Shown here one piece after another: positions 37,383 to 64,000 of a stretch of 64,000 bases of DNA (position 1 is its first letter; each line of letters starts with the position of its first letter). Position numbers and translations under genes: made by a program. Origin of the DNA: Ostreococcus lucimarinus (Eukaryota); NCBI GenBank assembly GCA_000092065.1, contig CP000598.1, one strand, 5' to 3'. The notes beneath the pieces are model-generated. The model did no database searches, was not told the origin of the DNA, and saw nothing but the letters and a program-made list of their open reading frames with translations.

Positions 37383-38300
37383 TCAGCAGTTGACAAAAAA
37401 TAGTTTACAAAGATTTCGCGCGCGCTCGATGACTTCCATTTCGTCGTGCGTAGCGGCGAACTCCAATTCAGGCCACGTCACTAGAGGCGCGCGCTTTCCC
37501 GCGTGCGCGTTATGATTCTTTCGTCGTTCGATGGCGCCTTTGAAATCCAAGTCTTCACACCCGATGAAATGAGAACGCGCGCATAACATTTCGAACAGTT
37601 TTGAATCGTTCGCGTCCTCAATTTTGAACCAACATTCCGCCGCTTCGTATCCAAGATTTGTGTATGTCGTCCACCACTCTAAACATTGCACGTCGTGTCG
37701 CAAAGAGTTGAAAACGCTTATGTTGACCTCAAAATCGCGACGAATGTCCTTACCAGCCATTTCAGAGTTGAAATTTGTATCAAATTGCCACTTCGTTCCT
37801 CTGCAGCTGCGTATCACTTGGAGCGGATGTCGAACGATGAGGAAAGTATTCGTGAATACTTCGATTGATCTAATGGGAAATTGTGGTGAACTCGCCAGCC
37901 AGTTTGAGCTTCCGTTCACTCCGAATGTCTCGTGACCTATGTCTACGCCAACATCGCGAAATACTTGAGATACAAAGCCGGTTCCTGAATAGCCGGCTCC
38001 GGTTATGAGAGCTGCGGACGCGATTGCGGATTTGTCGCCCACCCGTACCGGTTTTGAACGACGTCGGAACGACGTCTCGCTGAGAGCATCTTCTGAGAGA
38101 CATTGGTCTAGGCATGCGGCACAAACCGTTTCTGATGCAGTAACAAAGAACGAATCGTTCAAATTAACGTACCCCGTTAGCAATAAGGCGAGAATAGTCG
38201 ACAGAAATCCACCGACCCTGGTAAAGCGCTCTCTGACTTTGACGAGCGAATACTCGTCACGAGTGACTCGAACTTCACACGCCAGCGGCGATTCGATCAT
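37383..38300 (-). CDS. Type II membrane protein, sulfotransferase-like (305 aa).
   Basis: N-terminal anchor GGFLSTILALLLTGYV. 'ITGAGYSGTGFV' resembles the 5'-PSB loop and 'IVRHPLQVIRS' resembles the 3'-PB 'RDPxxRxxS' motif. Weak, motif-level only. Confidence 0.35.
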   Translation of the reverse strand: MIESPLACEVRVTRDEYSLVKVRERFTRVGGFLSTILALLLTGYVNLNDSFFVTASETVCAACLDQCLSEDALSETSFRRRSKPVRVGDKSAIASAALITGAGYSGTGFVSQVFRDVGVDIGHETFGVNGSSNWLASSPQFPIRSIEVFTNTFLIVRHPLQVIRSCRGTKWQFDTNFNSEMAGKDIRRDFEVNISVFNSLRHDVQCLEWWTTYTNLGYEAAECWFKIEDANDSKLFEMLCARSHFIGCEDLDFKGAIERRKNHNAHAGKRAPLVTWPELEFAATHDEMEVIERARNLCKLFFVNC

Positions 38301-38818
38301 TTGAGATCACCACACATTGCCATAGCCATAAAATCGTCAGTGAATGACGCACACGAACGGTTCTGTGTGACTTGCACGGCTGCACGGCCCAACAGGGGCG
38401 ACGGTTCGATTGTTTTTACAGCTTCATTTATTACATACGAAAAGAGGCAGCTTTGCGTTGAGGCGACTTGAACCTAAGCTTTTCATCTCCACTAGGCCAC
38501 ACCAATGTTCGCGTCGCAGTAGACGTGCAGGACAGACATTCGAATCGGTGCAACGTCGCGCTGTGAGTGGAAAGAACGACGCGGAGTGGTACGCCTCGAT
38601 GAATCGTCACACTCTGTCTTATGATGCGCGGATTCACGCGCTGTCGGCGTTCATCGCACGAGTTCTGCTCGCACGCAAATGCGAAGGCGTACCAAAAGCT
38701 ATTTCGTGTAGCCCTTTGACAACGACTGGAGGATGGCTGTGCGACCGTTTGGCGCTCGACGCGATTTCCAATTCTGTGTCGATCACCCTAAGTAAATCGT
38801 AATCTTCTTGTGGGAACG

Positions 38819-39928
38819 TCAGGAATACGTGCTGCACAATTCTGTGACTTGTGCTTTTGCAGACGCGTCGTGAAGTGGATTCACCTTTAACCAATGCTTG
38901 CAGCGAGTACAGTAAATGTCGGTTTGGTTGTCGGTTGTTTTGGCGTTCCAATCTCGTTCCAATCTCGCGCCGATGTCCAGTTCTTCTGTATCTGAAATCG
39001 ATTCAACGAAATCTAAGAGTAAATAACATTTGTACCCTTGAAGTCGGATGATTTCCTCCATTAACTCAATCGCTCTGTGAAGACTAAAGCTCGTGCGCTC
39101 GCGATACCACACCGCGGTGTACTCAAAAAACACATTTTTCACCGTTTTCGTTCTGAAGATGCGCATGCCGGACGACAAGACGCTCAGTTCATTACCTTCC
39201 GTATCTATGGCCAATATTTCAACGTCGTCATCATTCAAAGGGATGTCATCGAGCGCGATTGACGACACGATTTTGTGTCCAGCGCCGACGCCTTCGGCGT
39301 GTGTGTGAAACGTGCCAGAGCAAGTGTTGATCGGGGTGTCGATCGCGATCGGCACATCGCTGACGTAGTTGTTATACAACGAAACCCGTCTGACGAACTG
39401 CCGTGGGTACAAGGAAAACGTTTCCTGAATGCCAGAAACACAGAGAGGCAGAGGTTCTACGGCGTACACTCGGTACCCGCTGAGCATGAAAATCACGCAG
39501 AAAAAGCATTCATGCGCTCCGATGTTTATTGTTGCACCTCTACCACGGGACACACTAGAAATCGCATTAGATTTGTATTCGACTGGCGTCGAAGCCAATA
39601 GATTGCGCAGAATTTGTTGAATTTTCAATTCGCCTCCGTTCACTGGTAACCACTCAAACGTGTCTTCCCTCTTCAGCACGATAGGGAGATTTACGTAACC
39701 GTACACTTCAGTTTTTACGTCCGCCTTGTCTTTGACGAGGGTATGCGTGTCTTCGACGCCGTTTAAGGTGATTTCGCTGATGTTGGTGTGGCGAGGCGTG
39801 AAAACGACCTCTTGTTCGGGGCTCGCTGACACGCTGTAGTTGACACCACGTCGGAGCAGCGTAGGAATAATAAAGAGCGAAAGGAGAAGCGTATGTTTCG
39901 CACGCACTGAAACTTGCAGACTCTGCAT
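38819..39928 (-). CDS. FkbM-family methyltransferase domain protein with N-terminal membrane anchor (369 aa).
   Basis: 'GATINIGAHECFF' and 'VEILAIDTEGNELSVLSSG' match the two FkbM signature blocks. Anchor HTLLLSLFIIPTLL. Confidence 0.6.
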   Translation of the reverse strand: MQSLQVSVRAKHTLLLSLFIIPTLLRRGVNYSVSASPEQEVVFTPRHTNISEITLNGVEDTHTLVKDKADVKTEVYGYVNLPIVLKREDTFEWLPVNGGELKIQQILRNLLASTPVEYKSNAISSVSRGRGATINIGAHECFFCVIFMLSGYRVYAVEPLPLCVSGIQETFSLYPRQFVRRVSLYNNYVSDVPIAIDTPINTCSGTFHTHAEGVGAGHKIVSSIALDDIPLNDDDVEILAIDTEGNELSVLSSGMRIFRTKTVKNVFFEYTAVWYRERTSFSLHRAIELMEEIIRLQGYKCYLLLDFVESISDTEELDIGARLERDWNAKTTDNQTDIYCTRCKHWLKVNPLHDASAKAQVTELCSTYS

Positions 39929-41764: not shown

Positions 41765-42787
41765 ATGGCTGAACTATCCACGGGGAAAGTCGAAACCGGC
41801 TTGGTGAGCCCAACGATGGGCGTTCGAACCGCCTCGCTGGCGTCGCGAAAGCATCAAGCGCTGGCGCTTTTCATCTTGACGATCCAAAACACCGCCTTGG
41901 TGCTCGTGACGAAGTTTTCGTATAGAAAATCTGCGACGCCTTACGTCGTGTCCACAGTCATCGCGAGCGCCGAGCTCGTCAAACTCGCTTTGAGCTATAT
42001 TTTGTTGGTCGCGTCCGACGGACAAAGCGCCGCCCGGGACGCGCTCCGCGAGGTGCCGTCCAACGCGACGCGGCTCGCGGTCCCATCCGTGCTGTACGTA
42101 ATACAAAACAACCTCCTTTTCGAGGGCGTGCGGTTGCTGAGCCCGACCGCATACATGGTGTGTTCGCAGAGCAAAATTCTCACGAGCACGATTTGTAGCG
42201 TCTTGCTCCTAGGAACGCGAATCACGCGTAAACAATATGTAGCGTTGTTGGTCCTCGCGTGTGGGATGATCATGGTACAGAACGAAGAAGGACGTGGACG
42301 CGATTTGCCGTCGGATAGAGCGCAGGTGAGACAAACTGTGCGAGGTATGGTCGTCGTGCTCACCGCCGCGTTTACGTCTGGCTTCGCGGGGGCGTATTTA
42401 GAGAAAATGTACAAAGAAGTGGGCGCTCAAAAGCGATCGGTATGGTTCCGCAACGCACAACTGGCGTGCTTTTCACTTCCAGTGGCGTTGATCGGATCAG
42501 TGTGGCGCGATGGAGAGCGCTTGCGCGCGAACGAAAGCGTGTTTCAAGGATACGACGGCGTCGTGTTGCTCGTCATCGCGCTACAAGCCGCCGGTGGTTT
42601 AGTCGTCGCGGCGGTGTTGCGATACGCGGGAAACGTGCTCAAGTGCTTCGCCGTGTCTATTTCTATATGTAATTGCGCCCTCGCGACGACGGTGTTTGCC
42701 AACGACGGACACAACCTGAGCGTTACGGCATCTCTCGGCATAGCGCTCGTCATCGGGTCGACGTTTCTTTATTCAAACGTAGTGTAG
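41765..42787 (+). CDS. Nucleotide-sugar transporter (SLC35A / UDP-Gal-CMP-Sia transporter family), 340 aa.
   Basis: 'LYVIQNNLLFEGVRLLSPTAYMVCSQSKILTSTICSVLLLG' matches the NST signature. About 10 hydrophobic helices. Confidence 0.7.
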   Translation: MAELSTGKVETGLVSPTMGVRTASLASRKHQALALFILTIQNTALVLVTKFSYRKSATPYVVSTVIASAELVKLALSYILLVASDGQSAARDALREVPSNATRLAVPSVLYVIQNNLLFEGVRLLSPTAYMVCSQSKILTSTICSVLLLGTRITRKQYVALLVLACGMIMVQNEEGRGRDLPSDRAQVRQTVRGMVVVLTAAFTSGFAGAYLEKMYKEVGAQKRSVWFRNAQLACFSLPVALIGSVWRDGERLRANESVFQGYDGVVLLVIALQAAGGLVVAAVLRYAGNVLKCFAVSISICNCALATTVFANDGHNLSVTASLGIALVIGSTFLYSNVV

Positions 42788-42924: not shown

Positions 42925-43761
42925 TCAGACTGATCGATATTCATCCGTAAATTCGATTTGACTACCGACTAAACTCGATGCTAGAGACCGCCGTGCTACA
43001 TCGCACGGTTCCGTTTGGCAGTAATCGCGTCGAATTGACAAACACGCCGAGTCTTCACATCGAAATATGGTACCTCGATAAACTTCGCCCGCTGCAGTGC
43101 TCAGTTTACCGACTTGGTAACTCGCAGACGCCATCTGTATTCTACACTCCGACCACGACCAACGATCGCCGCATGTATTCTCGCTCGGTGGGTGGGTACT
43201 GATACAATTTTCGTATGCATTTGCCATCGTAGCGAAACTATCCAAGGCTTCTCTCGGTATGATGGTGAACGTGTCCGTCATAAAAGAAACTTCTCGACCT
43301 GATCCAACACTATTCCCGTCCACTTCGTCGCGATAGATCACCATTCCATTGAGAACAAGATTTCTTTTAAGCCCATACCACGTCTCTCCAGGCGGCAGTC
43401 TAGCGTAATATTCTATGTCTGTCCTCGTCAGGATGAAGTGATCGAACTCAACGTCACTTCGATTTCCGTACGCTTGTACGTCTCGCAAACACTCGCGCTG
43501 TCGATAAACTTGGGGATACCCTGCAGAAACGCACCCTACCTCGCCTACGCGCCCGTGTGGTTCCACGTCGTAGACGCGCAGAGATTCTAGCGAGAACCAA
43601 GAACGTAGCTCGGTTTCGACGTCGACGTTCACGCCCTTCTTATCAAGATGTAGAAATACGTGGACTTTTCCGCCGATCAAAAGTGGAGCAAGTACGGCGT
43701 CGTATATATGATCTTGGATATCCTTGCGCACGAGAGTGCGCACCTGACCAACGATGCACAC
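42925..43761 (-). CDS. Hypothetical protein (278+ aa); the N-terminus may lie further upstream.
   Basis: ORF only. No family recognised. Confidence 0.3.
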   Translation of the reverse strand: MCIVGQVRTLVRKDIQDHIYDAVLAPLLIGGKVHVFLHLDKKGVNVDVETELRSWFSLESLRVYDVEPHGRVGEVGCVSAGYPQVYRQRECLRDVQAYGNRSDVEFDHFILTRTDIEYYARLPPGETWYGLKRNLVLNGMVIYRDEVDGNSVGSGREVSFMTDTFTIIPREALDSFATMANAYENCISTHPPSENTCGDRWSWSECRIQMASASYQVGKLSTAAGEVYRGTIFRCEDSACLSIRRDYCQTEPCDVARRSLASSLVGSQIEFTDEYRSV

Positions 43762-46127: not shown

Positions 46128-47060
46128 ATGCGTTGGTTGAGGGGACGTGGTGTCAAGGCGATAATGTGCGTCGCCCTTGTCGCAGGTTTCGCCAAGGTAC
46201 CAGATCTGCACGTCAATAAGTATACTATGACACAGACACTGCAAGGCGACGGCTTTGGTTCACAGTTTCAAAATATCACATCTACCGCGGCTGCTCTGCA
46301 CGTCAATAAGTGTACTATGACACAGACACTGCAAGGCGACGGCTTTGGTTCACAGTTTCAAAATATCATATCTACCGCGGTTTTCGCTCAAACCTTGAAC
46401 AAACACTTTTGCGTGACCCCTATCGAAAGCATGGAGCACAACTACGACAATCGCTCAACGTTCCTTCGAGAAGTCAGCGAACTGATTAATTTACCAGTAC
46501 TTTCAAGTCAAGAGGACATGGACATTGAAAAGTGCGAGGTTAAAAAAGGCTGGCTGGATAGCTACATAGTTCAGGAAGCAAATCAGTTGGACGTTCGTAC
46601 AAAATTGGGTAACATTCGAAAGCAGTTCTTGGGTAACAAGCGCTCGTTGTCGGAACTTCGTAAACACGCTGCCGTGCACATCAGGAGGCAGAATTCTTTT
46701 GATAATCGAAACACTGTTTCTCATGATGAAGTCGTGTGCTTTGTGATGAGGGAAATTCTCACTCAAAACAGCAATATTCAGTTTCATGTATTTAGCCAGG
46801 GCGATATTTCGGAGTTTTGGCGCTACCAGAACGATTCAAGAATCGTCCTACGTCTCGACGAACCCATCAACGTGACGTTCACTGAAATGGTTGTCGCCAA
46901 AATTTTGGTCACAGCCACGTCGTCATTTAGCTATGCAGCAGCACTTCTCTCAGAGGGTGAGATATGGGCCCCAAGACCGTTCTGGCACAACTACCCTTCC
47001 TTCTGGAAGACATATCAGCTTTCTCGTACATTGTCTAACTTTGAGACATGCCTACCATGA
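46128..47060 (+). CDS. Membrane-anchored hypothetical protein (about 310 aa) containing a 90-bp perfect tandem duplication (about 46210-46299 and 46300-46389, peptide HVNK[YC]TMTQTLQGDGFGSQFQNI).
   Basis: Track ORF starts at GTG 46074; first ATG is 46128 (MRWLRGRGVKAIMCVALVAGFA). The tandem repeat is read directly. Confidence 0.4.
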   Translation: MRWLRGRGVKAIMCVALVAGFAKVPDLHVNKYTMTQTLQGDGFGSQFQNITSTAAALHVNKCTMTQTLQGDGFGSQFQNIISTAVFAQTLNKHFCVTPIESMEHNYDNRSTFLREVSELINLPVLSSQEDMDIEKCEVKKGWLDSYIVQEANQLDVRTKLGNIRKQFLGNKRSLSELRKHAAVHIRRQNSFDNRNTVSHDEVVCFVMREILTQNSNIQFHVFSQGDISEFWRYQNDSRIVLRLDEPINVTFTEMVVAKILVTATSSFSYAAALLSEGEIWAPRPFWHNYPSFWKTYQLSRTLSNFETCLP

Positions 47061-49344: not shown

Positions 49345-50080
49345 TCTGACAGGGACTCGCACGTTCTCGTGTCGCTTAAAGCCCGTATTTTGCTCCATCT
49401 CTTCGCGGTCTAAATACTGTATAAAGTGGGTGTGTAGTACGCTCTTTTCCGTTCTTCGGCCTGGGTGTTCAGTATGCTGTTTCCGGTCTTCAGTTTCTTC
49501 ATCTCGACGGCTTCGGGGCGACCACTTTGGCCGGCGACGAGTTTGCCCTGTACCATAGGACATCGTGGCCGCACACAGCATTTCGAGGCCTATATATTAT
49601 AATATCTCTTGTTTTTGTCAGAGGCCTATTTCTCAGAAACATCGTGTCCTTATGCGAAAATGAGGTGGATTAAGAGATGCGAAATTCGAAAATAGAATCG
49701 GCGATTTATTCCGATAAGGGCCGTTTTTTCCCACATCGGAATGAATCGGGCCTTTGTATTCCGAAAAGATACTTGTCAAAATAGCGCGACTCGTCACGTG
49801 ACGAGTTAATTTTAGGGGGTCCTATTCCGACAACGCTATTCCGGCTATCTCTTTTGAAAAACTAGCGACGCGAAATGAAGACGCGCAGTCGCCCCACTAG
49901 TGCGCGTCACTTGTTGAACTCGTTCTTCACCGAACGGGGTTTTAAAGACGTACATGTGTCCTCAGGGAACCGCATGCGGATTGTCGTCGATCTCCTTTGA
50001 CCTCGGACGCTGAGGCCTCGGACCTTAAAGTCCCCGCTTCCGACGTAAAAAGTTCTGTCAGTGCGAGTTTTAGCCACGCT

Positions 50081-52743: not shown

Positions 52744-53988
52744 TCACTCTGGAAACAAGGTACGCGTTTTTCTTCTCCAGTGCTTCAAGATATCGGCAAT
52801 TGTGTTTGTGATGTTTGGGTCAGGAATCCACCCCGTCAGCTCTCGTATTTTCCTATTATCTGACAAAAGTATCTTCTCATCGTAAAGCCGCTCACGTGCA
52901 CCATCAAACAGCGTCGTGATGTCTGGTCTTGTTGACAGTGAAATCGCTGTGTCTAGGATGTCCTTCATTGAAAGTGCGATGCCACTACCGATGTTGTACG
53001 ACTCTCCAGGCTCTCCAAGGTCTACAAGTTTCGTTACCACTCGTGCAGAATCGCGGAGGTCAGTTATGTCCCTTTTTGTGGTAATGCGCCCATGTCTCAC
53101 CACTGGGCTTTGCAATCCGAGCTCGATCATTGCTATCTGCCGACAAAACTCTTGAGGTGCGAGACTCTCAGTCCCACCCGCTGAAACTTGGATAAAAAAT
53201 CGAGCGGTGACGACGTGCATGCCGTGGCTGTGCACATATTGCTGAGCAAGTAGGTCTGCTGCAACCTTGCTTACTCCATAAGGAGACACGGGCGCCAATG
53301 GTGCTTCTTCAGGTATGGCCCCTTCCCACGTATCAGCAGTTTTTCCATATTCTGTGCTTGAACCAGCCAGCAGAAAGCGCGTTTTGTTGGAGAGTCCTGC
53401 AAATCGCACTGCTTCTAGCATGTTGAAGGTGCCTTTGATGTTGGTATCTAAAGTCAGCTCAGCGGAGTCATATGAAACCCCGTTGATTGCTTGTGCAGCA
53501 AAATGGAAAATAACTGTTGGGCAGATTTCTGCGACCACCTGTTTGACACGAGTTCCGTCCAGAATGTCTCCACGAACGAGCTGTATGTTGTTCAATTCGC
53601 CTGCCAAATTTGACAGGTCAGATCGGTATCGCACAAGACCGTGAACCTCATACTTTCCTTCCTGTATCAACTGTTTCACAACGTAGCTGCCTATCATTCC
53701 AGACACACCTGTCACGAGAGCTCTTGGTCTTGCAGATAGAGCACTCAAGCAAGGCGTGTAATCTTTACTCTTTGCATTAAGATTTGTAGCAAAAGAGGAT
53801 TCCTCACGGTACATATGAGTTTTTGAAGGTTGAACATTGTATCGTGAAGTAACCGGGCTTGAAAGTCCTGATTTGAATTGCACAGCCTGATATGACGGAT
53901 GTAACACAACAGCTGCTAAAACAAACGATGAAACAGCCAATATTCGTGCAGTCTTTCCCAGCGTGTGCTTGAAGCGACTGTCGCGCAT
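52744..53988 (-). CDS. GDP-mannose 4,6-dehydratase-like short-chain dehydrogenase (GMD/Rmd family) with an N-terminal membrane anchor (414 aa).
   Basis: 'ALVTGVSGMIGSYVVKQLIQEGKYEVHGLVRYRS' (Rossmann plus GMD-type N-terminus), 'AGSSTEYGK' (catalytic S/T..Y...K region). Anchor ILAVSSFVLAAVVL about 60 aa before the Rossmann fold. Confidence 0.6.
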   Translation of the reverse strand: MRDSRFKHTLGKTARILAVSSFVLAAVVLHPSYQAVQFKSGLSSPVTSRYNVQPSKTHMYREESSFATNLNAKSKDYTPCLSALSARPRALVTGVSGMIGSYVVKQLIQEGKYEVHGLVRYRSDLSNLAGELNNIQLVRGDILDGTRVKQVVAEICPTVIFHFAAQAINGVSYDSAELTLDTNIKGTFNMLEAVRFAGLSNKTRFLLAGSSTEYGKTADTWEGAIPEEAPLAPVSPYGVSKVAADLLAQQYVHSHGMHVVTARFFIQVSAGGTESLAPQEFCRQIAMIELGLQSPVVRHGRITTKRDITDLRDSARVVTKLVDLGEPGESYNIGSGIALSMKDILDTAISLSTRPDITTLFDGARERLYDEKILLSDNRKIRELTGWIPDPNITNTIADILKHWRRKTRTLFPE

Positions 53989-54469
53989 AGATAGCTGTCC
54001 TTAGCAAGTGATGACTATGTTATACTTCGAAGGTGTGCGGGACAAAATTCGCGACTGCCCTTGAGCGGCACGGAATGAGTTCAACAAGTGAGGCGCGCTG
54101 GCAGGGCGACGGCGCGCGTATACGTGTCGCGTCTCTTCATTTGCCATCATTTTTTATGTACAGTACAAGGGGGCTAGTAGTACTTTAGTAAAGTAATTGT
54201 ACTAATTGTAGTCATGATTGGTCGTTGTGCAGCATTGAGTCATGATTCGTCGTTTTACCCCTCCCAAACGTTGGCGGTATTTAGCCAGATCCGAATGTAC
54301 ACAGTCAGACGGTCGCTCTTGGGTCATGACTTGTCAAATGGGCTCAAAAACTCGCCCCGGCCGTGATCACCACAATGCCCTGACGCTCACTTTTTCGCTC
54401 AAAACGCTATCCTATGCCAAACGATGCCCGCACAACGGAGGACGCAGTCAAACGACTACAAACACTAGC

Positions 54470-55663
54470 ATGGCGTCCGTAGCGTCCGTTATCGCCGCCA
54501 AGCGCGCTGGCTTCATCGGTATGGGTCGTCTGGGATTGTGTACCGCCCTCAAGTTTGAGCAAGCGGGTTGGGATGTCTGTGGGTCTGACGTCTTTCCGTC
54601 GTACGTTGAAAGTATCAACGACAAGAGTCTTCGAAGCAAAGAGCCCGGAGTCGAAGAGGCTTTGCGAAAGAGCACGCGTTTGCGAGCGACTCTGAATCTC
54701 CTTGATGTCCTAGAGCATGCCGATATCGTTTTCATTCTCGTCGCGACTCCAACCAGCGCGGGCGAAGAGGCCTACGACACGACAACTCTGAGCAGGGTCT
54801 TGAGTGATATCGCTAAATTAAGGCCGACAAACAAACACATCGTGATTTGCTGCACAGTGTTGCCTGGTTACATCTCGAACATCGGTAGTTACCTTATCGA
54901 AAGTTGCACTGGATGTAGTTTGAGTTACAATCCAGAGTTCATCGCCCAGGGTGAGATCATGAAGGGCCTCAGTGAACCCGACGTGGTGCTCATAGGGGAA
55001 GGAAGCGAAGAAGCCGGTGATATTCTACAGTTTTTATACGAGACCGCGACGTCCAATGAGCCTCGGATCTGTCGCATGTCTCCGCAAAGCGCTGAGATAA
55101 TGAAACTAAGCGTAAACTGCTTTGTTACCACGAAGATCAGCTTCGCCAATATGATTGGTGACATTGCTGACGCGACGCCTGGTGCAGACAAATTCGACAT
55201 CCTTAGAGCCGTTGGTCAGGATACACGTGTCGGCCACCGGTGCATCCTTCCAGGTTACGGCTTCGGAGGTCCTTGCTTTCCACGTGATAATAGAGCACTC
55301 GGAATGTACGCACGCAAGGTTGGAATCACTCCTTCAATTTGCGACGCGACGGATGAATACAACCGACTTCACGCGGACGCCATGGTAAAGGCTCTTTTGG
55401 AACAAAAACTAGAGCATTATACCATCAGTGATGTTGCTTACAAGCCACAGTGTCCGGTGGATATTATTGAAGAGTCGCAACCACTCGAAGTGGCCAAGAG
55501 ACTTGTTCAAGCAGGCAAGCGAGTCGTTATACGCGATCGACCCGCCATCATCGAGCTCGTACGCCGCGCTTACGGGCGTATGTTTACCTACGGAGCATAC
55601 AAAGTACCTAACGAAGAACCAAATACTTCTGCTGGCAACCCGTTATCAAGCTACGCGAGGTAA
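54470..55663 (+). CDS. UDP-glucose/GDP-mannose 6-dehydrogenase family (UgdH/WecC-like nucleotide-sugar dehydrogenase), about 397 aa.
   Basis: 'GFIGMGRLGLCTALKF' NAD-binding start, 'NPEFIAQGEIMKG', 'GFGGPCFPRDN' catalytic Cys block. Start moved to ATG 54470 (MASVASVIAAKRAGFIGMG) by analogy with the paralogous fragment at 58817. Confidence 0.7.
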   Translation: MASVASVIAAKRAGFIGMGRLGLCTALKFEQAGWDVCGSDVFPSYVESINDKSLRSKEPGVEEALRKSTRLRATLNLLDVLEHADIVFILVATPTSAGEEAYDTTTLSRVLSDIAKLRPTNKHIVICCTVLPGYISNIGSYLIESCTGCSLSYNPEFIAQGEIMKGLSEPDVVLIGEGSEEAGDILQFLYETATSNEPRICRMSPQSAEIMKLSVNCFVTTKISFANMIGDIADATPGADKFDILRAVGQDTRVGHRCILPGYGFGGPCFPRDNRALGMYARKVGITPSICDATDEYNRLHADAMVKALLEQKLEHYTISDVAYKPQCPVDIIEESQPLEVAKRLVQAGKRVVIRDRPAIIELVRRAYGRMFTYGAYKVPNEEPNTSAGNPLSSYAR

Positions 55664-56407: not shown

Positions 56408-57961
56408 ATGCTACTGAAAGTAGCTTGCGATTCCGGTACTATGGCTCGCCGAACGGTCATTCTGTTTGCGGTTGTGGCCGTGTTGCTTTGGAGACTGTTC
56501 TTGTTCGATATTGGTGACAGCAGATTTAAAAGTATCACACCACATCCATCACCGGAGCAAAGACGACAACAAAATCACCGAGCAAGATTTTTAGAGCTCA
56601 CACATAACGAAACCTACAAAACCGCAAATGTCGAAGAGAGGAACGATGAACATTTCAAGATGGAACGATATGAAGAATCACCTGCAAGATTACAAGCGTC
56701 AGCTAATTTGGATACACAGAGCACCCGCGTCTTGGTTTTAAGTTGGCATGGTGGTACCGCGAAAGACACAGCGATGCAACTTCATAACGCTGGAGTTCGT
56801 CGCGAAAATATCGTGTGTGGAGGCATTATTTGGTACGAGAAAGTCCTCGATTCTGCTCCTTGCGTAAGAGATCATGCATTATCTGAGGCTTTGAATCGAT
56901 TGACACAGCGTGTAAGAGGTTTTCCCATGGCTATCGATCCAGCAGACGAGAAATGGTTGGATGATTTCGCAGCTGAGGCTAGCGAGATGCTATCTACGTT
57001 CCATGTGCTCTGGGCGGACTTTCCTACCGCCCTTTGTCTTCTATTAAACAAGATTGCCCCACATAAATTGATAGTACGCACAACGCATCGTTTTGATCAC
57101 CAGGTGGCTCATTCGAAGATAAATCACACGTCATTTGTACGTAAAAGCCTCATGCGCGTTCTACGCGAGGCGCCAATACTTCTTGCTGGGAGCGAGTACG
57201 ATCGGGCATACATGAAGTTCTACACATGTCGTGAACCTGAACGTCTATTCATAACATGGCCAACACAGTATTTGGAGAGTTTGGGCGCATCGCGTACACT
57301 TACGAACGAGTCATGCTTCATCTTGTGGGGGGGGTCGAACAACGAAGGTAGTTCAAGCATATCGATTACATTTGATAGAATACGAGTCCTCGGGCGCACT
57401 ATGGAGTCACAAGTTCCCATGAAAAGTCGCCCAACGAGTTTTGCTCACGCTTCGGAATTTGCAACAGAGCAAGCCGTAGTATATTTCCCATACAGTATGC
57501 CGAGTTCCGCATTTCATGAACTTTACGCGAGTGGTGTCCCCCTTTTCGTGCCATCGTTGACTTTCATGCTCGATGAGTTTTCAAAAAACCGTGGCTATCC
57601 TCACAAAGTAGCTGGTAATGTCCCTTGTGCTTCACCATCTTTTTACGAAAACGCTGAGGCAGTGGAGTTCTGCTGTCTTGACGATACTGGGGTATGTCAT
57701 GATCCAAATTCATGCGATCCTGAAGCGCTGAAACAATGGGTATCATTAGGTGACCTTTACACCACCCCGCATGTGACGTATTTCGACAGTGCCGAGCATG
57801 CTGTGGAACTCATGAGCAACTGGATGAAGCATCCAGACCAACGGGATCGAACGATCGAGGACATGGAGTCACACAACGTTGCTAACCTTCGATGGAATGC
57901 TCGTGTCGTTCAAGCCGCAATTCGTCATGTCAAACAAAGCAGCGCGCTTGAACTGGATTGA
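56408..57961 (+). CDS. Type II membrane protein, possible glycosyltransferase (about 517 aa).
   Basis: Anchor RRTVILFAVVAVLLWRLFLF. Long ORF. Its last 46 codons are duplicated at 61462-61599. Confidence 0.4.
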   Translation: MLLKVACDSGTMARRTVILFAVVAVLLWRLFLFDIGDSRFKSITPHPSPEQRRQQNHRARFLELTHNETYKTANVEERNDEHFKMERYEESPARLQASANLDTQSTRVLVLSWHGGTAKDTAMQLHNAGVRRENIVCGGIIWYEKVLDSAPCVRDHALSEALNRLTQRVRGFPMAIDPADEKWLDDFAAEASEMLSTFHVLWADFPTALCLLLNKIAPHKLIVRTTHRFDHQVAHSKINHTSFVRKSLMRVLREAPILLAGSEYDRAYMKFYTCREPERLFITWPTQYLESLGASRTLTNESCFILWGGSNNEGSSSISITFDRIRVLGRTMESQVPMKSRPTSFAHASEFATEQAVVYFPYSMPSSAFHELYASGVPLFVPSLTFMLDEFSKNRGYPHKVAGNVPCASPSFYENAEAVEFCCLDDTGVCHDPNSCDPEALKQWVSLGDLYTTPHVTYFDSAEHAVELMSNWMKHPDQRDRTIEDMESHNVANLRWNARVVQAAIRHVKQSSALELD

Positions 57962-58094
57962 AAATGCTGGTCGATACAAAGAAGCTGTGGGGGCGATACT
58001 TTGGACATCGTATTCAATATCTTACTTGGCGTACCTCGCCATGTAGAGTCTCACGCCTAGCGTATGTACGCGAAGTGAAAATAGATTTGAGTTT

Positions 58095-58817
58095 TCATTT
58101 AGTGTAACTCGATAGCGGGTTTTCCATGGTGGTGTTCGGGATGGGCGCTACTCCCCCTGCCGTAGTATCGCATATTTCGTAATCGAACAACTGCCCGTAC
58201 GTTCCTCGCACTAAGTGAACAATCGCCACCCGGTCGAAAACTGTCACTTTCTTCCCCCGTCGCACGAGTCGTTTCGCGATTTCGAGCAGCTGGGACTCTT
58301 CGATGATATCCACAGGACAATTCGATTCATATGCGACGTAGGATACCTTACACCTATCGAGATCTAGCCAGGTAACACCGTGCCTCAAATCATCAAGTGT
58401 TTGTTCTCGGGGTTCAAGTCGCTAATATCACTCAAAAAACCGACTGAGCGCGCTTGTGTCGTACGCTTGATCTCCAGAGTCAGTGGGCGTGGCGACGAGG
58501 ATGAAGACCATATCGACGCGATCGATCACTTCACGCAGCTTTAAAGTTGCGCGCAGATGTTTGCTCGATCGAAGCGCTTCCTCGACTCTTGGCTCAGTCA
58601 AACGAAGCGTGATTTCGTTGATGCTGTCCACGTGCGCCGGAAAGACATCCGAACCAACGATATCCCAATCAGCTTGTTCACACTTGAGAGCCGTACATAG
58701 TCCGAGTCGGCCCAGACCGACGAATCTGGCGCGCGTTGTTTGCAAGATCGATCGAGTGGTAGCCATCTTCGCTCTGCGACGTTGCAACGTCAGAGACGGC
58801 GACTGGCCCAAGATCAC
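58095..58817 (-). pseudogene. Internally deleted paralog of the nucleotide-sugar dehydrogenase. N-terminal about 110 aa (58428..58817) and C-terminal about 80 aa (58095..58388) are recognisable; the central catalytic region is missing.
   Basis: 'MATTRSILQTTRARFVGLGRLGLCTALKCEQADWDIVGSDVFPAHVDSIN' and '...CPVDIIEESQLLEIAKRLVRRGKKVTVFDR...ENPLSSYTK*' align to the ends of 54470..55663. Confidence 0.6.
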
Positions 58818-59560
58818 TCCACTCTCTTAAAGCATGTCTCTTTCTGGACTTTATTATCCCTGGTACTTTGTTAGGTATATGTCGTAGGAACGCAACCGCG
58901 GACCACAGCCTCGGTGTTGACTCACCACTGCTTTCCTCTGCGTCGAAACTACCGCAACAACGCTCTTGACACGCGCACTAACATTAAGTACACCGGTCGT
59001 GAGCGACGCCATGCGCGAGTCGAATGAGTTCGTGAAAACGTTTTACGATGATCGCCCTTGTAACATTCGGCTCGAAGGAATACTTTGAAGAAGTGACGCG
59101 GCGTAAATATTTCGTCGAGAACCACACTTTGGCATTCGCAAGTCTCGACGCGTACGAAAACAATCTGTTCTCGAGGTTGGTTGCGGTATAGGGACCGCGA
59201 CACAAAGTTTTACTGAAGCTGGCGCGGTTTACACAGGCATCGACGTTTCCTTGCGAAGTGTAGAACTCGCTGAGAAGCGACTCAAACTGTTCAAACTCAA
59301 TGGTGAGGTGCGCGTTGCAGATATACAGACCGATGAATTCATGCACGACCATTTTGATCCTCTTTTTAGTTTCGGAGTTCTGCATCACATCGCCGATGTA
59401 CAACCCGCCGTGAAGGATATTTCATGACTCTCAAACCGGGAGGCGAGTGCAAGCTGATGATGTACGCAAATAATTCTTGGAAAAAAACTTGGAAAAAGAC
59501 TTTCGTCGACTCGGGATTGGACCAATTTGAACCACAATCTGGAGTTCCAATCACTCACAC

Positions 59561-60750
59561 TTACAAAGCCAGTGTCGTGCAATCATCAAGCTCGTTTGTG
59601 AAATCAAACTCGAGCGATCGTCGTCGACCGTCCGCGCTCGCCGAAGGGTGCGGGCGCAACGCAGGTGAGAATTCGCCCCAGTAGGCGCTCAAGTCGTTAT
59701 TCGAGTACCAACGCACGGTTTCCGCGAGACCGACGTCCCAGGACTTTTCTTGTCGCCATCCGAGCGCTAAAAGCTTTGAGCAATCGATGAAATATCTTCG
59801 GTCGTTGAAGGCTCGATCGCTCACGTGCTCGATGGTCGTTTCCGGGTCGCGATCGAGGAGCTTACAGACATCCCGAGCGACGGACAAGATCGTCCGCTCT
59901 TCGCGCGAGCCGATGTTATAAATCTGCGCCGTCGTCCCGCGGTGGAGAATGACATCGAACGCCGAAGACGCATCGTCAACGTGCATGTACGAACGCGTCG
60001 CGTCGCCGTCGCCGTGTATCGAAATCTTTTCCCCGCGTTTCGCGAGGATTGAAAACTTTGGAATCGCCTTCTCTGGATACTGATTCGGCCCATACACGTT
60101 GTTTCCGCGAGTGATGATGTACGGTAGTCCGTACGAGCGTCCATACGCCATGACGAGCATCTCCGCGCCCGCCTTGGTCGCGGCGTACGGGTTGGTGGGC
60201 GTCAGGAGCGACGCGTGCTCGGTGTTTGAATCCATGAGATTTTCCCCGTATACCTCATCCGTGGACACGTGCAGGAATCGTCGAATTTCGGTCTTCTGCG
60301 CTCGCACGCACGCCTCGAGTAACGCGTGCGTGCCCTCGATGTTATTCTTCGTGAACTCGTACGAGTTCCCGAAAGAGTTGTCCACGTGACTCTGCGCGGC
60401 GAAGTGCATGACGGTGTCGATGCGCTCGCTTTGCAAGACGTAACTCAATAAATCGAACGAACGCACATCGCCCTTGACGAACCGCACGTTCGCGCATTCT
60501 TTCGCGCGCTCGAGATTTTTCAAGCTCGAGCAATAGTCGAGCTTGTCCAGGATGACAATCTGTCGAGCGCGACGAGTCGTTCGCGGTCAGTCGTTCGCGC
60601 GAGAGATGGGTGCAAAGTCCGTGCGTTGTTCGACGCACGCGCACGGGGTCGAAATCGTGCGCGCACCGTGTACTCGGGATGCCTCGACGCGAGGCGCTCG
60701 GCGACGTGCGAGCCGATGAAGCCGGCGCCACCGGTGAGAAGGATGCGCAT
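59561..60750 (-). CDS. dTDP-glucose 4,6-dehydratase (RmlB) / UDP-glucose 4,6-dehydratase family, two exons. Exon 1 is 60667..60750 (MRILLTGGAGFIGSHVAERLASRHPEYT), intron 60560..60666 (GTGCGC...ACAG, 107 nt), exon 2 is 59561..60559 (IVILDKLDYCSSLKNL...).
   Basis: Exon 1 contains the GGAGFIGS Rossmann motif. Exon 2 has 'HFAAQSHVDNSF' and 'YAATKAGAEMLVMAY' (catalytic YxxxK). Joining the exons restores the expected 'Y.V..LDKLDY' continuity in frame. Confidence 0.7.
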
Positions 60751-61239: not shown

Positions 61240-61830
61240 GTCTACTGCATACACTTTAAGTGCGCCGATAAAGAGCTTTGACTTCGTGACAACGGCTGTC
61301 ATCTACGAACCTGTTTCACGCATCAAAGTCCACCATGCTTTGAATCCTGTGGCTTGTGGCACGTGATGAGCAAGTGCCACCCGAACCTGCGTTCTATGGT
61401 GCGCACGAGAGCGTCCGCACGAGAGCATCCGGCATGGCCGCGAACCACGGCTCTTTTCTGGATGAAGCATCCAGACCAACGGGATCGAACGATCGAGGAC
61501 ATGGAGTCACACAACGTCGCTAACCTTCGATGGAATGTTCGTGTCGTTCAAGCCGCAATTCGTCACGTCAAACAAAGCAGCGCGCTTGAACTGGATTGAA
61601 AATGCTGGTCGATACAAAGAAGCTGTGGGGACGATACTTTGGACATCGTATTCAATATCTTACTTAGCGTACCTCGCCGTGTAGAGTCTCACGCCTAGCG
61701 TACGTACGCGAAGTGAAAATAGATTTGAGTTTTCATTTAGTGTAACTCGATAGCGGGTTTCCCATGGTGGTGTTCGGGATGGGCGCTACTCCCCCTGCCG
61801 TAGCATCGCATATTTCGTAATCGAAAAGTT
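61240..61830 (+). repeat. Composite duplicate: 61240-61460 copies 55860-56070, and 61462-61830 copies 57822-58190. Carries a truncated 3' fragment (61462..61599) of the 56408..57961 gene, a pseudogene remnant.
   Basis: Direct alignment. ORF 61354..61599 ends with the same 'WMKHPDQRDRTIEDMESHNVANLRWN.RVVQAAIRHVKQSSALELD*' as 56408..57961. Confidence 0.75.
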
Positions 61831-61841
61831 AACGTGCCCAT

Positions 61842-61925: not shown

Positions 61926-62812
61926 CGCATTTCGAAAATAATGTATGAGGGTAAAATAATGAATTTAATTAACGTCGACGTTTGTCGCGCCGTCGCGCGC
62001 CACTTCGCGCCGCGCGCGCGTCCGGGCGGCGCGGAGTCAACCGATGTTTCCGCGTATCGTGATATCCGACCGTTTAAGTTTGAATTCTGTGCGTGGGTGT
62101 TGACGGAACACGACCGTTGGAGCTCGATGGGCACGTTAACTTTTGGGCCAGATTCTGTCGCGTATGACGCACCCTCGCGCGCGCCGAAGCGCGTCTCCGA
62201 CCGTGTCGACGGCACGGAAAGGTTGTAAGAAGGCTTCTCAGCGATCTTCAGCCTCGCTGGGAGGAGCAGAGGCAACGACGGCTCCCGCTTGCGACGACGA
62301 AGACTGGCGCGCTCAAGTGGCCAAAGATGCTCGTGAGGTTGCCGTTTCTTTGCTCGCGAACAAACGTCGCCGGGAGGTTTCTGTTTCTGATACTATACTA
62401 TACTTAGGGCTAGCTCATTCAGGCGATGTGAAACGTCCGTGACGACGCGCTCATACGTAAATTCTTGCATGAATGCGCGAGCATTTGCTGTGATTTCACG
62501 CAACCTCGTTAGCGATTCGCCATCGGTGTTCGCCACAATCTTCGTTTTCTCAGCCAAATCGTGCAAATCTTCGGATATTCCGATGAAGTGTATCACATCT
62601 ACTAGCTTGTCGCTGTAAGTGATCGATTTCTAAAAAAGTTGCACGAGGTAAAAACACCCCGGCGGAGTCCTCACCCTTTACCCATACTCTTGAGTCATGA
62701 ACGGCCAAAACCGAGCTAAATTTAGCGAAGCCCGGGCGAACCACGATTCATTCCTCCGTGAAGGACGTCCGCGTGCCCGAAGATTCCGACGCCAGCATAC
62801 ATCGCGGAGTTG

Positions 62813-64000
62813 ATGGGACGGTTAAAAAGTATCCTCGTCCTCGATCGCCGAAGAGCGAGAACTCTGATCTCGTTAGTCTCGTTAGTCTCGCTAGTCTCGT
62901 TGTGTTTCGCCGCCCTGCTATCGGTGAACAAACATGCCGGTTGGCCGCGAAAAGGCGATCCTCCCACGCCCTCGTTGGACTCGATGAAAGATATCGAGTC
63001 AGAACGTTTCGACAGAACGGCCTATTCTGCTGAAATCAAAATCGCGATTGTCTTCGGTACGCGACCAGAGGCTGTGAAAATGGCTCCGGTGATTCAAGCG
63101 GTGGCCAGATCGTCGACTCTGAGTGCGATACTGATCTCCACGGGTCAACACAAACAGATGCTTGAGCAAGTTCTGCGCCAGTTCAGCTTGCAAGATAAAA
63201 TTCAACACGAGCTAGCGCTGATGAAGCCAAATCAACAGCTCGCAGAGCTCACATCGAGCGCGGTGCGCGCGGTAGACGGCGTGCTACGTTCGTCAAAACC
63301 AGACGCGGTGCTCGTGCAGGGCGATACAACGACAGCGTTTATCACGTCTTTGGCGGCGTTTTACTTGAAAATACCAGTTGGACACATCGAAGCGGGTCTT
63401 CGTACGCGTGATATCTACTCACCCTTTCCCGAAGAAGTCAATAGACAGTGTATCTCAGTTATGGCGACGTATCACTTCGCACCCACCGAACACGCGGCAA
63501 AAAATCTGTACGACGAGGGTAGACGCACGAATGTGTTTACAACCGGTAACACTGTTGTCGATGCCCTATATGCAATTTTAAAGACTGAACCGAGTGATCG
63601 AGTGATTGAGCTATCCAAAGTCGTGAAGACTGTATCCACTCTGCGCGACGTGAGGCTGTTACTTCTCACCGCTCATCGACGTGAAAACCTTGGCGAACCC
63701 ATACTCAACATCTTCACAAGCATAGAGAAGCTTCTGCAAGAATACCCTGACGTCGTCGTGATTTATCCCATTCACTTGAACCCTATGGTGAAGCACTTAG
63801 CAGAACAGCACTTCGGCGTTGATACATTCCACAGCCTTGTACAGTCGGACCACGCGCCGCCAACGACTACGCACTTACGGCGATTGCTGATAGTACCACC
63901 TCTAGACCATGCAGATTTATTATTCATGATGAAAGAGAGTTTTTTCGTCATGACAGATTCGGGAGGTATCCAAGAGGAAGCGGTCACTCTAGGAAAACCG
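62813..64000 (+). CDS. UDP-N-acetylglucosamine 2-epimerase (WecB/MnaA type, non-hydrolysing), partial (runs off the right edge), with an N-terminal membrane anchor encoded partly by a 9-bp x3 tandem repeat (SLVSLVSLVSL).
   Basis: Hand translation from ATG 62813: MGRLKSILVLDRRRARTLISLVSLVSLVSLCFAALLSV...KIAIVFGTRPEAVKMAPVIQ...GQHKQM...PDAVLVQGDTTTAF...HIEAGLRT...PFPEEVNRQ...HFAPTE...TGNTVVDAL...LTAHRREN...VMTDSGGIQEEAVTLGKP. The ORF track omits it because no stop occurs before the window end. Confidence 0.75.
   Translation, partial: MGRLKSILVLDRRRARTLISLVSLVSLVSLCFAALLSVNKHAGWPRKGDPPTPSLDSMKDIESERFDRTAYSAEIKIAIVFGTRPEAVKMAPVIQAVARSSTLSAILISTGQHKQMLEQVLRQFSLQDKIQHELALMKPNQQLAELTSSAVRAVDGVLRSSKPDAVLVQGDTTTAFITSLAAFYLKIPVGHIEAGLRTRDIYSPFPEEVNRQCISVMATYHFAPTEHAAKNLYDEGRRTNVFTTGNTVVDALYAILKTEPSDRVIELSKVVKTVSTLRDVRLLLLTAHRRENLGEPILNIFTSIEKLLQEYPDVVVIYPIHLNPMVKHLAEQHFGVDTFHSLVQSDHAPPTTTHLRRLLIVPPLDHADLLFMMKESFFVMTDSGGIQEEAVTLGKP

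Follow-up and report, generated by a model that had tools for sequence, protein, structure and literature searches.

Results

The 64-kb stretch of DNA analysed here (the window) comes from chromosome 18 of the tiny marine green alga Ostreococcus lucimarinus CCE9901, its small outlier chromosome (SOC). The segment 37383-64000 is likely a fast-evolving glycan toolbox; judging from the SOCs of O. tauri (chromosome 19) and O. mediterraneus, it probably diversifies the glycome of the cell surface or secretory pathway and thereby influences how prasinovirus infections turn out. Protein matching showed 100% identity between 7 window ORFs and O. lucimarinus CCE9901 proteins encoded on a 149,386-bp contig, and for 4 further ORFs the reference model was only partial and fell in the same 90% cluster. 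SOCs are found in Mamiellales green algae, and chromosome 18 of O. lucimarinus has been described as 149 kb long with 53% GC, 16 sugar-metabolism genes and 5 methylation genes (Moreau 2012, Table 2), or as carrying 11 methyltransferases, 8 glycosyltransferases, 6 NAD epimerase/dehydratases and 4 sugar transporters (Yau 2016, Table 1, PMC5082852). The preliminary description of this DNA had called the cluster undescribed, which is wrong given this published gene content. Low GC, enrichment in these four gene classes and foreign-looking genes were already known for the SOC. The additions here are the anchor of a WecB-type epimerase and a transporter-glycosyltransferase (GT) fusion, both missed by the reference models, a clade of anchored WecB proteins, a sulfotransferase-like family without a Pfam model, and three decayed gene copies.

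A dense set of glycan-related genes

Families were called using Pfam curated cut-offs, NCBIfam/TIGR cut-offs and profile searches against PDB structures. Between 37383 and 64000, 10 of the 14 intact ORFs had family- or fold-level support for glycan work, compared to 0 of the ~12 ORFs tested in 1-37 kb (hypergeometric p ~2e-4, simple arithmetic on the counts). The dense glycan-modification cluster and shared functional theme claimed earlier were borne out, the genes lie at the positions given, and most of the families listed scored above curated cut-offs, with the GMD call failing. GC of the segment was 0.50 as compared to 0.57-0.65 for the adjoining 26-37 kb. The features were as follows.

37383..38300, minus strand: sulfotransferase-fold type II protein, 305 aa, TM helix at residues 19-46
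38819..39928, minus: FkbM methyltransferase 1 (ABP00660 / XP_001422343), short N-terminal hydrophobic segment
40226..41548, minus: GT17-family glycosyltransferase (ABP00661), anchor at residues 4-26
41765..42787, plus: SLC35A-type nucleotide-sugar transporter, Pfam Nuc_sug_transp 3.9e-71, 240 bits
42925..43761, minus: possible truncated gene or pseudogene, 278-codon ORF, no ATG in the first 139 codons
44138..45181, plus: type II protein, 347 aa (ABP00619 / A4SA95), anchor at residues 10-24
46128..47060, plus: type II protein, 310 aa (ABP00620 / A4SA96), UniRef name 'Fucosyltransferase' (source name only)
48373..49581, minus: FkbM methyltransferase 2, Pfam Methyltransf_21 7.1e-9, 36.5 bits (cut-off 22.7)
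50099..52366, plus: transporter-STELLO/GT75-like fusion, 755 aa, within ORF 49997-52366
52744..53988, minus: extended SDR, 414 aa, anchor at residues 10-31, stem of ~55 aa, Pfam GDP_Man_Dehyd and Epimerase
54242..55663, plus: prokaryotic-type nucleotide-sugar 6-dehydrogenase, Pfam matches to the N and central UDPG_MGDP_dh domains, no anchor
56408..57961, plus: type II protein, family unassigned, 517 aa (ABP00633 / A4SA48), anchor at residues 17-31
58095..58817, minus: dehydrogenase-paralogue remnant (pseudogene), internally deleted, Pfam UDPG_MGDP_dh_N 8.5e-13
59107..59681, plus: class I SAM methyltransferase fragment, interrupted, probable pseudogene
59561..60750, minus: soluble NDP-glucose 4,6-dehydratase, 360 aa, exon 1 60750-60667, exon 2 60559-59561
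61243..61825, plus: deleted copy of the 56408-57961 gene, upstream region fused to the last 46 codons and 3' flank
62813..64000, plus: non-hydrolysing UDP-GlcNAc 2-epimerase of WecB type, N-terminal anchor LISLVSLVSLVSLCFAALL, runs past the window end

Transferases and transporters

The sulfotransferase-fold protein conserves GxGYSGTG and VRHPLxVxxS motifs and represents a family without a Pfam model. FkbM 1, an exact match to an O. lucimarinus protein, scored 8.5e-17 (62.2 bits) with Pfam Methyltransf_21 and 45.7 bits with TIGR01444 (cut-off 37.7). FkbM 2 has a reference model of only 162 aa; its probable start is M80 at 49344, which would yield an N-terminal anchor or signal. The GT17 protein matched Glyco_transf_17 at 8.8e-14 (51.8 bits, cut-off 26). 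The three type II proteins at 44138-45181, 46128-47060 and 56408-57961 had no Pfam match and any names are source-given only, as with the UniRef name of A4SA95, 'Nucleotide-diphospho-sugar transferase domain-containing'; the last of the three also had no match in PDB.

The SLC35A-type transporter has an annotated start at M18 (41816) and the source name 'DMT: UDP-N-acetylglucosamine' (ABP00618). In the fusion, a multi-pass NST/TPT-type transporter is joined through one more TM segment to a STELLO/GT75-like domain, with a Pfam STELLO match at its C-terminal end (5.1e-20, 72 bits). Using homologue profiles against PDB, the N-terminal half matched the yeast GDP-mannose transporter 5oge (4.7e-11) and the C-terminal half matched GT75 NDP-pyranose mutase structures (7xpu, 9.9e-14). 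Homologues with the same architecture exist, and the reference annotation, a 293-aa partial 'GDP-mannose transporter', missed the fusion. Synteny with a relative carrying a 58% identical fusion was loose: a transporter was kept nearby and other neighbours differed, including a DDE transposase.

Nucleotide-sugar enzymes

The earlier WecB call was confirmed, with a Pfam Epimerase_2 match at 4.6e-82 and 333 bits with the NCBIfam wecB equivalog (cut-off 210). Reference model P0109 starts 3' of the anchor and omits two internal stretches. The suggested bacterial affinity held in that the protein was 45-49% identical to hundreds of bacterial enzymes, with the anchored proteins apart from these as a small separate clade (NJ, bootstrap 98/100). 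No anchored WecB-type epimerase was found in the literature on Ostreococcus and we know of none in plants.

The extended SDR had been described as a GMD-like dehydratase. Its best solved relative was the bacterial GDP-6-deoxy-4-hexulose reductase Rmd (2pk3, 3e-54) as compared to about 1e-29 for true GMD structures, and its 132 bits with the gmd equivalog were well short of the 415 required, so that judged by these matches the protein is Rmd-like and not a true GMD. The 6-dehydrogenase, with a probable start at M77 (54470), scored 221 bits with TIGR03026 (cut-off 190) and matched 3vtf best in PDB (3e-43; human UGDH 2e-23). It was nearer UDP-glucose dehydrogenases than WecC, scoring 155.7 bits with AglM vs 56-88 bits with UDP-ManNAc dehydrogenases. 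The 4,6-dehydratase proved RmlB-like as proposed: once its single intron (60666-60560, 107 nt, GT..AG) was spliced out, the protein aligned end to end with Pfam models from model position 1 and matched the dehydratase structure 6vlo at 8e-87, and exon 2 alone scored 298.8 bits with TIGR01181.

Membrane anchors

Topology was assessed by simple hydropathy and charge counts and not by a trained predictor. Nine proteins carried a hydrophobic N-terminal segment with a more positive N-flank, fitting type II topology and upholding the anchors reported earlier; by the same counts, the nucleotide-sugar dehydrogenase and the 4,6-dehydratase had no N-terminal anchor. Most cluster products thus look like secretory-pathway type II proteins. 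The plant Golgi enzymes UXS, GAE and MUR4 are SDR-type nucleotide-sugar enzymes whose catalytic domain faces the Golgi lumen on an N-terminal tether, and provide a precedent for anchored enzymes of this type, although they belong to different SDR subfamilies. For an Rmd-type reductase to work in the Golgi lumen, NAD(P)H would have to be available in that compartment, which casts doubt on either the assigned activity or the orientation.

Origin of the genes

Horizontal acquisition followed by retargeting to the secretory pathway had been suggested for several enzymes of the cluster (FkbM, WecB, GMD). By their matches several enzymes are of bacterial type (WecB, Rmd-like SDR), which makes foreign origin and then retargeting plausible for these, in agreement with the published enrichment of SOC genes in horizontal transfers (Moreau 2012) and the foreign look of several SOC glycosyltransferases (Yau 2016, PMC5082852). 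The 4,6-dehydratase, with its intron and native-like GC3 of 0.72, and the SLC35-type transporter, with a GC3 of 0.68, look vertically inherited; GC3 is 0.44-0.59 in most cluster genes. No sign of recent transfer was seen, as bacterial relatives of the SDR were only 30-33% identical and scans of viral collections gave no close relatives.

The lower GC of the segment relative to its flanks would also fit an endogenous giant-virus (prasinovirus-like) insertion carrying viral glycosylation genes. Genes for GMD, dTDP-glucose dehydratase and GTs occur in prasinoviruses (Yau 2016, PMC5082852), giant-virus MAG contigs carried genes with 44-50% identity to the 4,6-dehydratase, and one IMG/VR contig (L012) carried distant STELLO-like, Rmd-like and dehydratase-like genes. 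However, such identity is generic for so conserved an enzyme, and the dehydratase gene is native-like in GC3 and contains an intron of spliceosomal type. Scans of viral collections gave no close relative of either WecB or FkbM and just one 24% match for the SDR, and no viral hallmark genes were present among the ORFs tested. Yau 2016 (PMC5082852) likewise found no host-virus similarity suggesting transfer, and we consider a viral insertion very improbable.

WecB, FkbM, an Rmd-like SDR and a prokaryote-type dehydrogenase are typical of bacterial O-antigen/capsule loci, as would be expected of bacterial DNA, whether a contaminant of the assembly or a surface-polysaccharide locus transferred in bulk very recently. 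This has next to no probability: the segment is contiguous with ORFs for a eukaryotic DNMT carrying CXXC and Tudor domains and a Myb protein and includes a eukaryote-type SLC35 transporter and GT17, an intron and eukaryote-style type II anchors are present, identity to bacterial proteins is only 30-49%, and the same gene arrangement recurs on many independent environmental contigs.

Proposed role

In the toolbox reading, two soluble enzymes, the 4,6-dehydratase and the nucleotide-sugar dehydrogenase, would make activated sugars in the cytosol, and the SLC35-type transporter and transporter-GT75 fusion would import nucleotide sugars into the Golgi or ER, where the type II enzymes (WecB epimerase, Rmd-like SDR, GT17, putative GT-A and fucosyltransferase-like proteins, two FkbM methyltransferases and the sulfotransferase-fold protein) may interconvert and transfer sugars and decorate cell-surface glycoconjugates.

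The link between SOC and prasinovirus resistance is published for O. tauri and O. mediterraneus. SOC GT genes are over-expressed in virus-resistant O. tauri lines (Yau 2016, PMC5082852), and in O. mediterraneus the SOC is reported to carry the majority of genes whose expression differs between resistant and susceptible lines, GTs, epimerases and sulfotransferases among them (2026 preprint). Virus adsorption did not differ between resistant and susceptible O. tauri cells, leaving the glycan-affected step of infection unsettled. Almost no orthology links the SOC genes of different species (Moreau 2012; 2026 preprint) and the O. tauri analogy is therefore functional only.

The segment was proposed to be one dedicated, co-regulated ~27-kb cluster building a single methylated, sulfated, deoxy-/amino-sugar wall, scale or mucilage polysaccharide. 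The steps from sugar activation and transport through epimerisation and transfer to methylation and sulfation do form a coherent set within 27 kb, WecB near a nucleotide-sugar dehydrogenase is reminiscent of bacterial UDP-ManNAcA modules, and 'putative gene clusters' of GTs and sugar-modifying enzymes were noted on the O. tauri SOC (Yau 2016, PMC5082852). Yet the dehydrogenase is not closest to WecC, gene orientations alternate across the segment with decayed paralogues in between, and the same gene classes are scattered over the whole SOC with no single bounded cluster. Ostreococcus is moreover a naked alga with neither wall nor scales, making such a polymer unlikely. Different blocks of the O. 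tauri SOC are expressed alternatively (Yau 2016, PMC5082852). A single-polymer cluster is thus improbable, and a set of tailoring modules is more likely than a linear pathway.

Comparison with known systems

The O. tauri 'viral immunity chromosome' (chromosome 19, PMC5082852) is also a small, low-GC SOC in which GTs, methyltransferases (FkbM and others), NAD epimerase/dehydratases and sugar transporters are over-represented. It, too, has foreign-looking genes and a transporter-GT fusion, and it shows duplications and rearrangements. Its genes are non-orthologous to the O. lucimarinus cluster, its fusion partner is GT92 instead of STELLO/GT75, and resistance-linked differential expression has been shown for O. 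tauri. Glycoconjugate metabolism and methyltransferases likewise dominate the SOCs of Bathycoccus prasinos (chromosome 19), Micromonas (chromosome 17 or 19) and O. mediterraneus, which share low GC, few orthologues and excess HGT candidates but have no synteny and almost no orthology. This likeness has been read as functional convergence, and a parallel drawn with the Prochlorococcus hypervariable islands (Moreau 2012). Those islands, which determine phage resistance, are likewise variable and rich in sugar-modifying enzymes, methyltransferases, membrane proteins and HGT genes, but they are prokaryotic, chromosomal and not a separate chromosome, and act directly on the cell envelope with no Golgi targeting. 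Bacterial O-antigen/ECA/capsule loci (wecB/wecC, rmlB, rmd, fkbM-type) use the same nucleotide-sugar interconversion and O-methylation families. Unlike these, the O. lucimarinus cluster is not an operon: its genes lie on both strands, one has an intron, N-terminal type II anchors occur, eukaryotic SLC35 transporters stand in for Wzx/Wzy or ABC export, and its enzymes are only 30-49% identical to the bacterial counterparts.

Decayed copies and turnover

Turnover in the segment is rapid, as seen from three decayed copies of genes and from a tandem duplication of 90 bp (46205-46380) inside the 46128..47060 gene. The dehydrogenase remnant comprised two ORF fragments 62% and 50% identical to dehydrogenase residues 77-185 and 390-473. 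The methyltransferase fragment matched Methyltransf_11, 12 and 25 at ~1e-14 over 59107-59424, continued its LKPGG motif in another reading frame, and overlapped the 3' end of the 4,6-dehydratase gene. The 42925..43761 ORF had no family match and no anchor. The deleted copy of the 56408-57961 gene was evident by blastn, with 55862-56076 matching 61243-61464 at 90-94% and 57820-58187 matching 61458-61825 at 97.6%, and was also supported by blastp.

Chromosomal location and composition of the glycan gene cluster

To place the cluster in the genome, window ORFs were compared with annotated proteins by exact-sequence look-up. Seven ORFs were 100% identical to annotated Ostreococcus lucimarinus CCE9901 proteins, including an FkbM methyltransferase (ABP00660 / XP_001422343), the GT17 protein (ABP00661), ABP00618, ABP00619, ABP00620 and ABP00633, and four further ORFs had just a partial reference model within the same 90% cluster. 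For some ORFs no exact protein match was found from the first in-frame start, and matches were obtained with downstream ATGs. The matched O. lucimarinus proteins were all on one 149,386-bp contig. The small outlier chromosome (SOC) of this alga, chromosome 18, has been described as 149 kb with 53% GC and 78 ORFs, 16 for sugar metabolism and 5 for methylation enzymes (Moreau et al. 2012, PMC3491373, Table 2). The window lies on this designated small low-GC chromosome. The same region was present in many independent assemblies, both environmental and from culture. The genes discussed below are:

37383-38300, minus strand, sulfotransferase-like (ST-like) protein, 305 aa
38819-39928, minus strand, FkbM methyltransferase (FkbM1)
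40226-41548, minus strand, GT17 protein
41765-42787, plus strand, nucleotide-sugar transporter, ABP00618
44138-45181, plus strand, ABP00619
46128-47060, plus strand, putative fucosyltransferase, ABP00620
48373-49581, minus strand, FkbM methyltransferase (FkbM2)
50099-52366, plus strand, transporter-glycosyltransferase fusion
52744-53988, minus strand, Rmd-like SDR
54242-55663, plus strand, nucleotide-sugar dehydrogenase
56408-57961, plus strand, 517-aa protein, ABP00633
59561-60750, minus strand, 4,6-dehydratase
62813-64000, plus strand, WecB-type epimerase, running off the window end

The cluster region had a GC content of 0.50, below the genome average of ~59-60% as is characteristic of the SOC. 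GC3 was 0.44-0.59 in most cluster genes as compared to 0.77-0.78 in the neighbouring BCCT and DNMT genes. The transporter (0.68) and the intron-bearing 4,6-dehydratase (0.72) were set apart from the other cluster genes by a native-looking GC3. Glycan-related genes made up 10 of the 14 intact ORFs in 37.4-64 kb versus 0 of the ~12 ORFs tested in 1-37 kb (hypergeometric p ~2e-4, our own arithmetic on these counts), an enrichment in glycoconjugate metabolism and methyltransferases typical of the SOC. An interrupted SAM-methyltransferase fragment comes on top of the ten. Searches of the 64-kb window for tRNA genes and Rfam families were negative.

Enzyme families

Most of the family assignments made in the preliminary description were confirmed by curated models above their thresholds. 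Both FkbM methyltransferases (PF05050) passed the gathering threshold of 22.7 bits, with 62.2 and 36.5 bits. The GT17 protein (PF04724) scored 51.8 bits against a cut-off of 26, aligning to model positions 67-197 of 348 only. The transporter matched Nuc_sug_transp with 240 bits, and extended-SDR domains were also confirmed by curated models. The dehydrogenase carried UDPG_MGDP_dh domains and scored 221 bits with a nucleotide-sugar dehydrogenase subfamily model (cut-off 190). The 4,6-dehydratase gene contained a single GT..AG intron of 107 nt (60666-60560); the spliced 360-aa product aligned to Pfam from model position 1 and matched a 4,6-dehydratase structure at 8e-87. Exon 2 alone scored 298.8 bits with TIGR01181 (dTDP/UDP-glucose 4,6-dehydratase), cut-off 365.1. 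PDB sequence searches gave no match for the GT17 protein or for the 517-aa protein.

Two assignments called for correction. The gene at 52744-53988 had been called GMD-like, and its product missed the gmd equivalog TIGR01472 (132 vs 415 bits). The best solved relative was the bacterial GDP-6-deoxy-4-hexulose reductase Rmd (2pk3, 3e-54), with GMDs at ~1e-29, and on these similarities we re-assign the protein as a predicted Rmd-like SDR.

The second was the sulfotransferase-like call: the fold with PAPS-binding loop motifs agrees with it, and no curated sequence family does. The protein had no Pfam or NCBIfam match, and its remote relatives matched Sulfotransfer_3 below cut-off only. Searching the PDB with a family profile returned insignificant matches only, two sulfotransferase domains among them at E = 0.09-0.6. 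The protein had only four close homologues; AlphaFold gave a pLDDT of 32 with 5 close sequences and was repeated with 43 remote homologues. The fold-level evidence indicates that this protein represents an unmodelled family with a predicted sulfotransferase fold.

Two minor features were seen among the remaining ORFs. A 90-bp tandem duplication (46205-46380, 97% identical) lies within the putative fucosyltransferase ORF (ABP00620) and doubles the motif QGDGFGSQFQN, which we take to resemble the GxGNQ motif of GT11-type fucosyltransferases. The 278-codon ORF at 42925-43761 (minus strand) lacks an ATG within codons 1-139 and matched no family, which could reflect truncation of the gene or a first exon that was missed.

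Transporter-glycosyltransferase fusion

The fusion protein contained a STELLO domain at 72 bits (cut-off 27.8). A profile of eight homologues matched its N-terminal half to the yeast GDP-mannose transporter 5oge (4.7e-11) and its C-terminal half to GT75 NDP-pyranose mutase structures (7xpu, 1e-13; PMC9937993). The window fusion protein itself did not reach the Pfam TPT model. By hydropathy, the N-terminal half is multi-pass, and one more hydrophobic segment comes after it. Judged by these profiles, a transporter and a STELLO/GT75-like domain are both detectable in a single ORF. The transporter is fused to GT92 in O. tauri, whereas in the window it is fused to STELLO/GT75, and in a Pseudoscourfieldia marina protein (P0238) a homologous transporter domain is fused to a xyloglucan-fucosyltransferase-like (GT37) domain. 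The GT37 and GT92 fusions together suggest that transporter-glycosyltransferase fusions recur in prasinophytes with different glycosyltransferase partners.

Genes resembling three members of the cluster (STELLO-like, 29%; Rmd-like, 34%; and 4,6-dehydratase-like) also adjoin at ~366-6968 of IMGVR_UViG_3300032954_000010 (L012), a 66-kb contig classed as viral. These three matches are distant, and the contig may carry a giant-virus glycan module or may be misclassified.

Membrane anchors and the origin of WecB

A hydropathy scan, a simple calculation rather than a trained predictor, located a single hydrophobic segment at the N-terminus of nine proteins, namely the ST-like protein, FkbM1 (weak), GT17, ABP00619, ABP00620, FkbM2 (from M80), the Rmd-like SDR, ABP00633 and WecB. 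In all nine the N-flank was more positively charged than the C-flank, matching the expectation for type II or signal-anchor proteins. By the same scan the segment was absent from the dehydrogenase and the 4,6-dehydratase.

The WecB ORF (62813 to beyond 64000) matched Epimerase_2 at 4.6e-82 and, despite truncation at the window end, passed the equivalog TIGR00236 for non-hydrolysing UDP-GlcNAc 2-epimerase (333.2 bits vs 210.15). Its best non-self matches were a handful of longer proteins, 52-66% identical, that come from catalogues of eukaryotic origin (Tara, MMETSP), followed by hundreds of bacterial enzymes with 45-49% identity. An N-terminal extension of 44-83 residues with a TM-like segment was present in 7 of the 12 best matches; bacterial-type proteins start 4-24 residues ahead of the GTRPE motif. 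Of 100 bootstraps of a neighbour-joining analysis, 98 separated the 11 extended sequences from the 60 of bacterial type. The test used unrooted bipartitions, as the anchored group was broken up artificially under midpoint rooting. The sequence data fit one old acquisition to which an anchor was added, not a recent transfer. Two members of the anchored clade, P0110 and P0118, have a C-terminal extension of ~200-300 aa with a common 'VWKR...' motif and no Pfam match, which may be an unmodelled glycosyltransferase domain joined to the epimerase.

Bacterial and viral relatives

A bacterial polysaccharide operon or bacterial contamination was considered as the source of the cluster and rejected, as the genes lie on mixed strands, one has an intron and identity to bacterial proteins is 30-49%. 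The Rmd-like SDR reached only 30-33% identity with its bacterial relatives. Scans of viral collections returned no close relatives of WecB or FkbM1 and one 24% match only for the Rmd-like SDR. The 4,6-dehydratase was 44-50% identical to genes of giant-virus MAGs, a generic similarity, and no viral hallmark domains were found among the ORFs tested. An endogenous giant-virus element was rejected as there were no hallmark domains among the ORFs tested and no close viral homologues of WecB, FkbM1 or the Rmd-like SDR.

Gene turnover and reference gene models

Three decayed copies were found among the intact genes:

58095-58817, dehydrogenase paralogue with an internal deletion
59107-59681, interrupted class I SAM methyltransferase fragment
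61243-61825, copy of the 517-aa gene without its body

These copies point to recent duplication and decay. A relative with a 58% identical fusion protein kept a transporter nearby and had otherwise different neighbours, including a DDE transposase. The ST-like protein had only four word-index homologues, and the related contig has the fusion and a transporter with other neighbours that differ.

Several GenBank models look wrong or partial. The reference WecB model begins past the anchor and misses two internal stretches, the fusion is represented by a 293-aa partial transporter, FkbM2 by 162 aa and the dehydrogenase by a 353-aa partial model.

Relation to known SOC biology

The cluster is an already known feature and its detection here a rediscovery, as all of it matches published SOC descriptions. 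The SOC has low GC, few orthologues and an excess of HGT candidates, its gene content is mainly one of glycoconjugate metabolism and methyltransferases, and 'alien origin' and surface-defence hypotheses were proposed for this chromosome (Moreau et al. 2012, PMC3491373). The O. lucimarinus SOC encodes 11 methyltransferases, 8 GTs, 6 NAD epimerase/dehydratases and 4 sugar transporters, and a transporter-GT fusion, FkbM genes and foreign-looking GTs were described on that of O. tauri (Yau et al. 2016, PMC5082852). The pathway had been called undescribed in the preliminary description, which does not hold since both papers tabulate the sugar and methylation gene content of this chromosome. SOC GT genes were over-expressed in virus-resistant lines (PMC5082852). 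Demonstrations of the link to prasinovirus resistance, by differential expression or rearrangement, are confined to O. tauri and O. mediterraneus. A 2026 preprint extends the SOC picture to O. mediterraneus and mentions SOC sulfotransferases. Virus adsorption was unchanged in O. tauri, which leaves the step at which glycans act unsettled.

Of the initial interpretation, the functional theme, secretory targeting and partly foreign ancestry stood. Ostreococcus is a naked alga, and the wall, scale or mucilage product suggested for the cluster is therefore unlikely.

A speculative reading, which we regard as improbable, is that a type II, bacterial-type WecB and the Rmd-like SDR carry out part of the nucleotide-sugar interconversion in the Golgi lumen to supply one strain-specific glycan serving as prasinovirus receptor or shield. 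The two enzymes would be tethered beside their own SLC35 transporter and would form UDP-ManNAc and a 6-deoxyhexose donor there. These donors would be used at once by the GT17, fucosyltransferase-like, FkbM and unmodelled sulfotransferase-family proteins, and the product would be a single methylated and sulfated surface glycan. If true, such lumenal interconversion would be unusual, and the anchored WecB clade (11 sequences) would be a eukaryotic innovation common to several marine protists. 

As a locus through which the most abundant marine picoeukaryotes may escape their giant viruses, the SOC is the best candidate. Our re-analysis leaves the SOC picture unchanged and adds gene-level curation for O. 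lucimarinus: corrected models (anchored WecB, full transporter-GT75 fusion, longer FkbM2), the Rmd-like re-assignment and fold evidence for the ST-like family. The corrected parts list leads to testable predictions on surface sugars, namely ManNAc, 6-deoxyhexose, and methyl and sulfate groups.

The neighbouring 1-37 kb region

Among the ORFs tested in 1-37 kb, one codes for a 2607-aa protein of DUF285 repeats and others for a BCCT transporter, a Myb protein and a DNA methyltransferase; the rest are unknowns. The 2607-aa ORF (1545-9368, plus strand) has at least 13 DUF285 (BspA-like) repeat units (1193 bits) and an exact 822-bp internal repeat (1902-2723 = 2835-3656), and is probably of the 'cell surface repeat' protein type found on the O. 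tauri SOC map. A 4.2-kb segmental duplication (10191-14406 and 22125-26353, 98.8% identity) carries in each copy an ORF of 841 or 843 aa with unassigned function (ABP00650) and no Pfam match. Smaller repeats pair 9684-10020 with 16376-16703 and 14936-15059 with 18044-18167. A high-GC island (0.57-0.65) at ~26000-37300 holds native-looking genes for the BCCT transporter (GC3 0.77), the Myb protein and the DNA methyltransferase (GC3 0.78), a C5 enzyme that contains both mono-CXXC and Tudor domains. Such an island within a low-GC chromosome is at odds with the published claim of low GC across the whole SOC.
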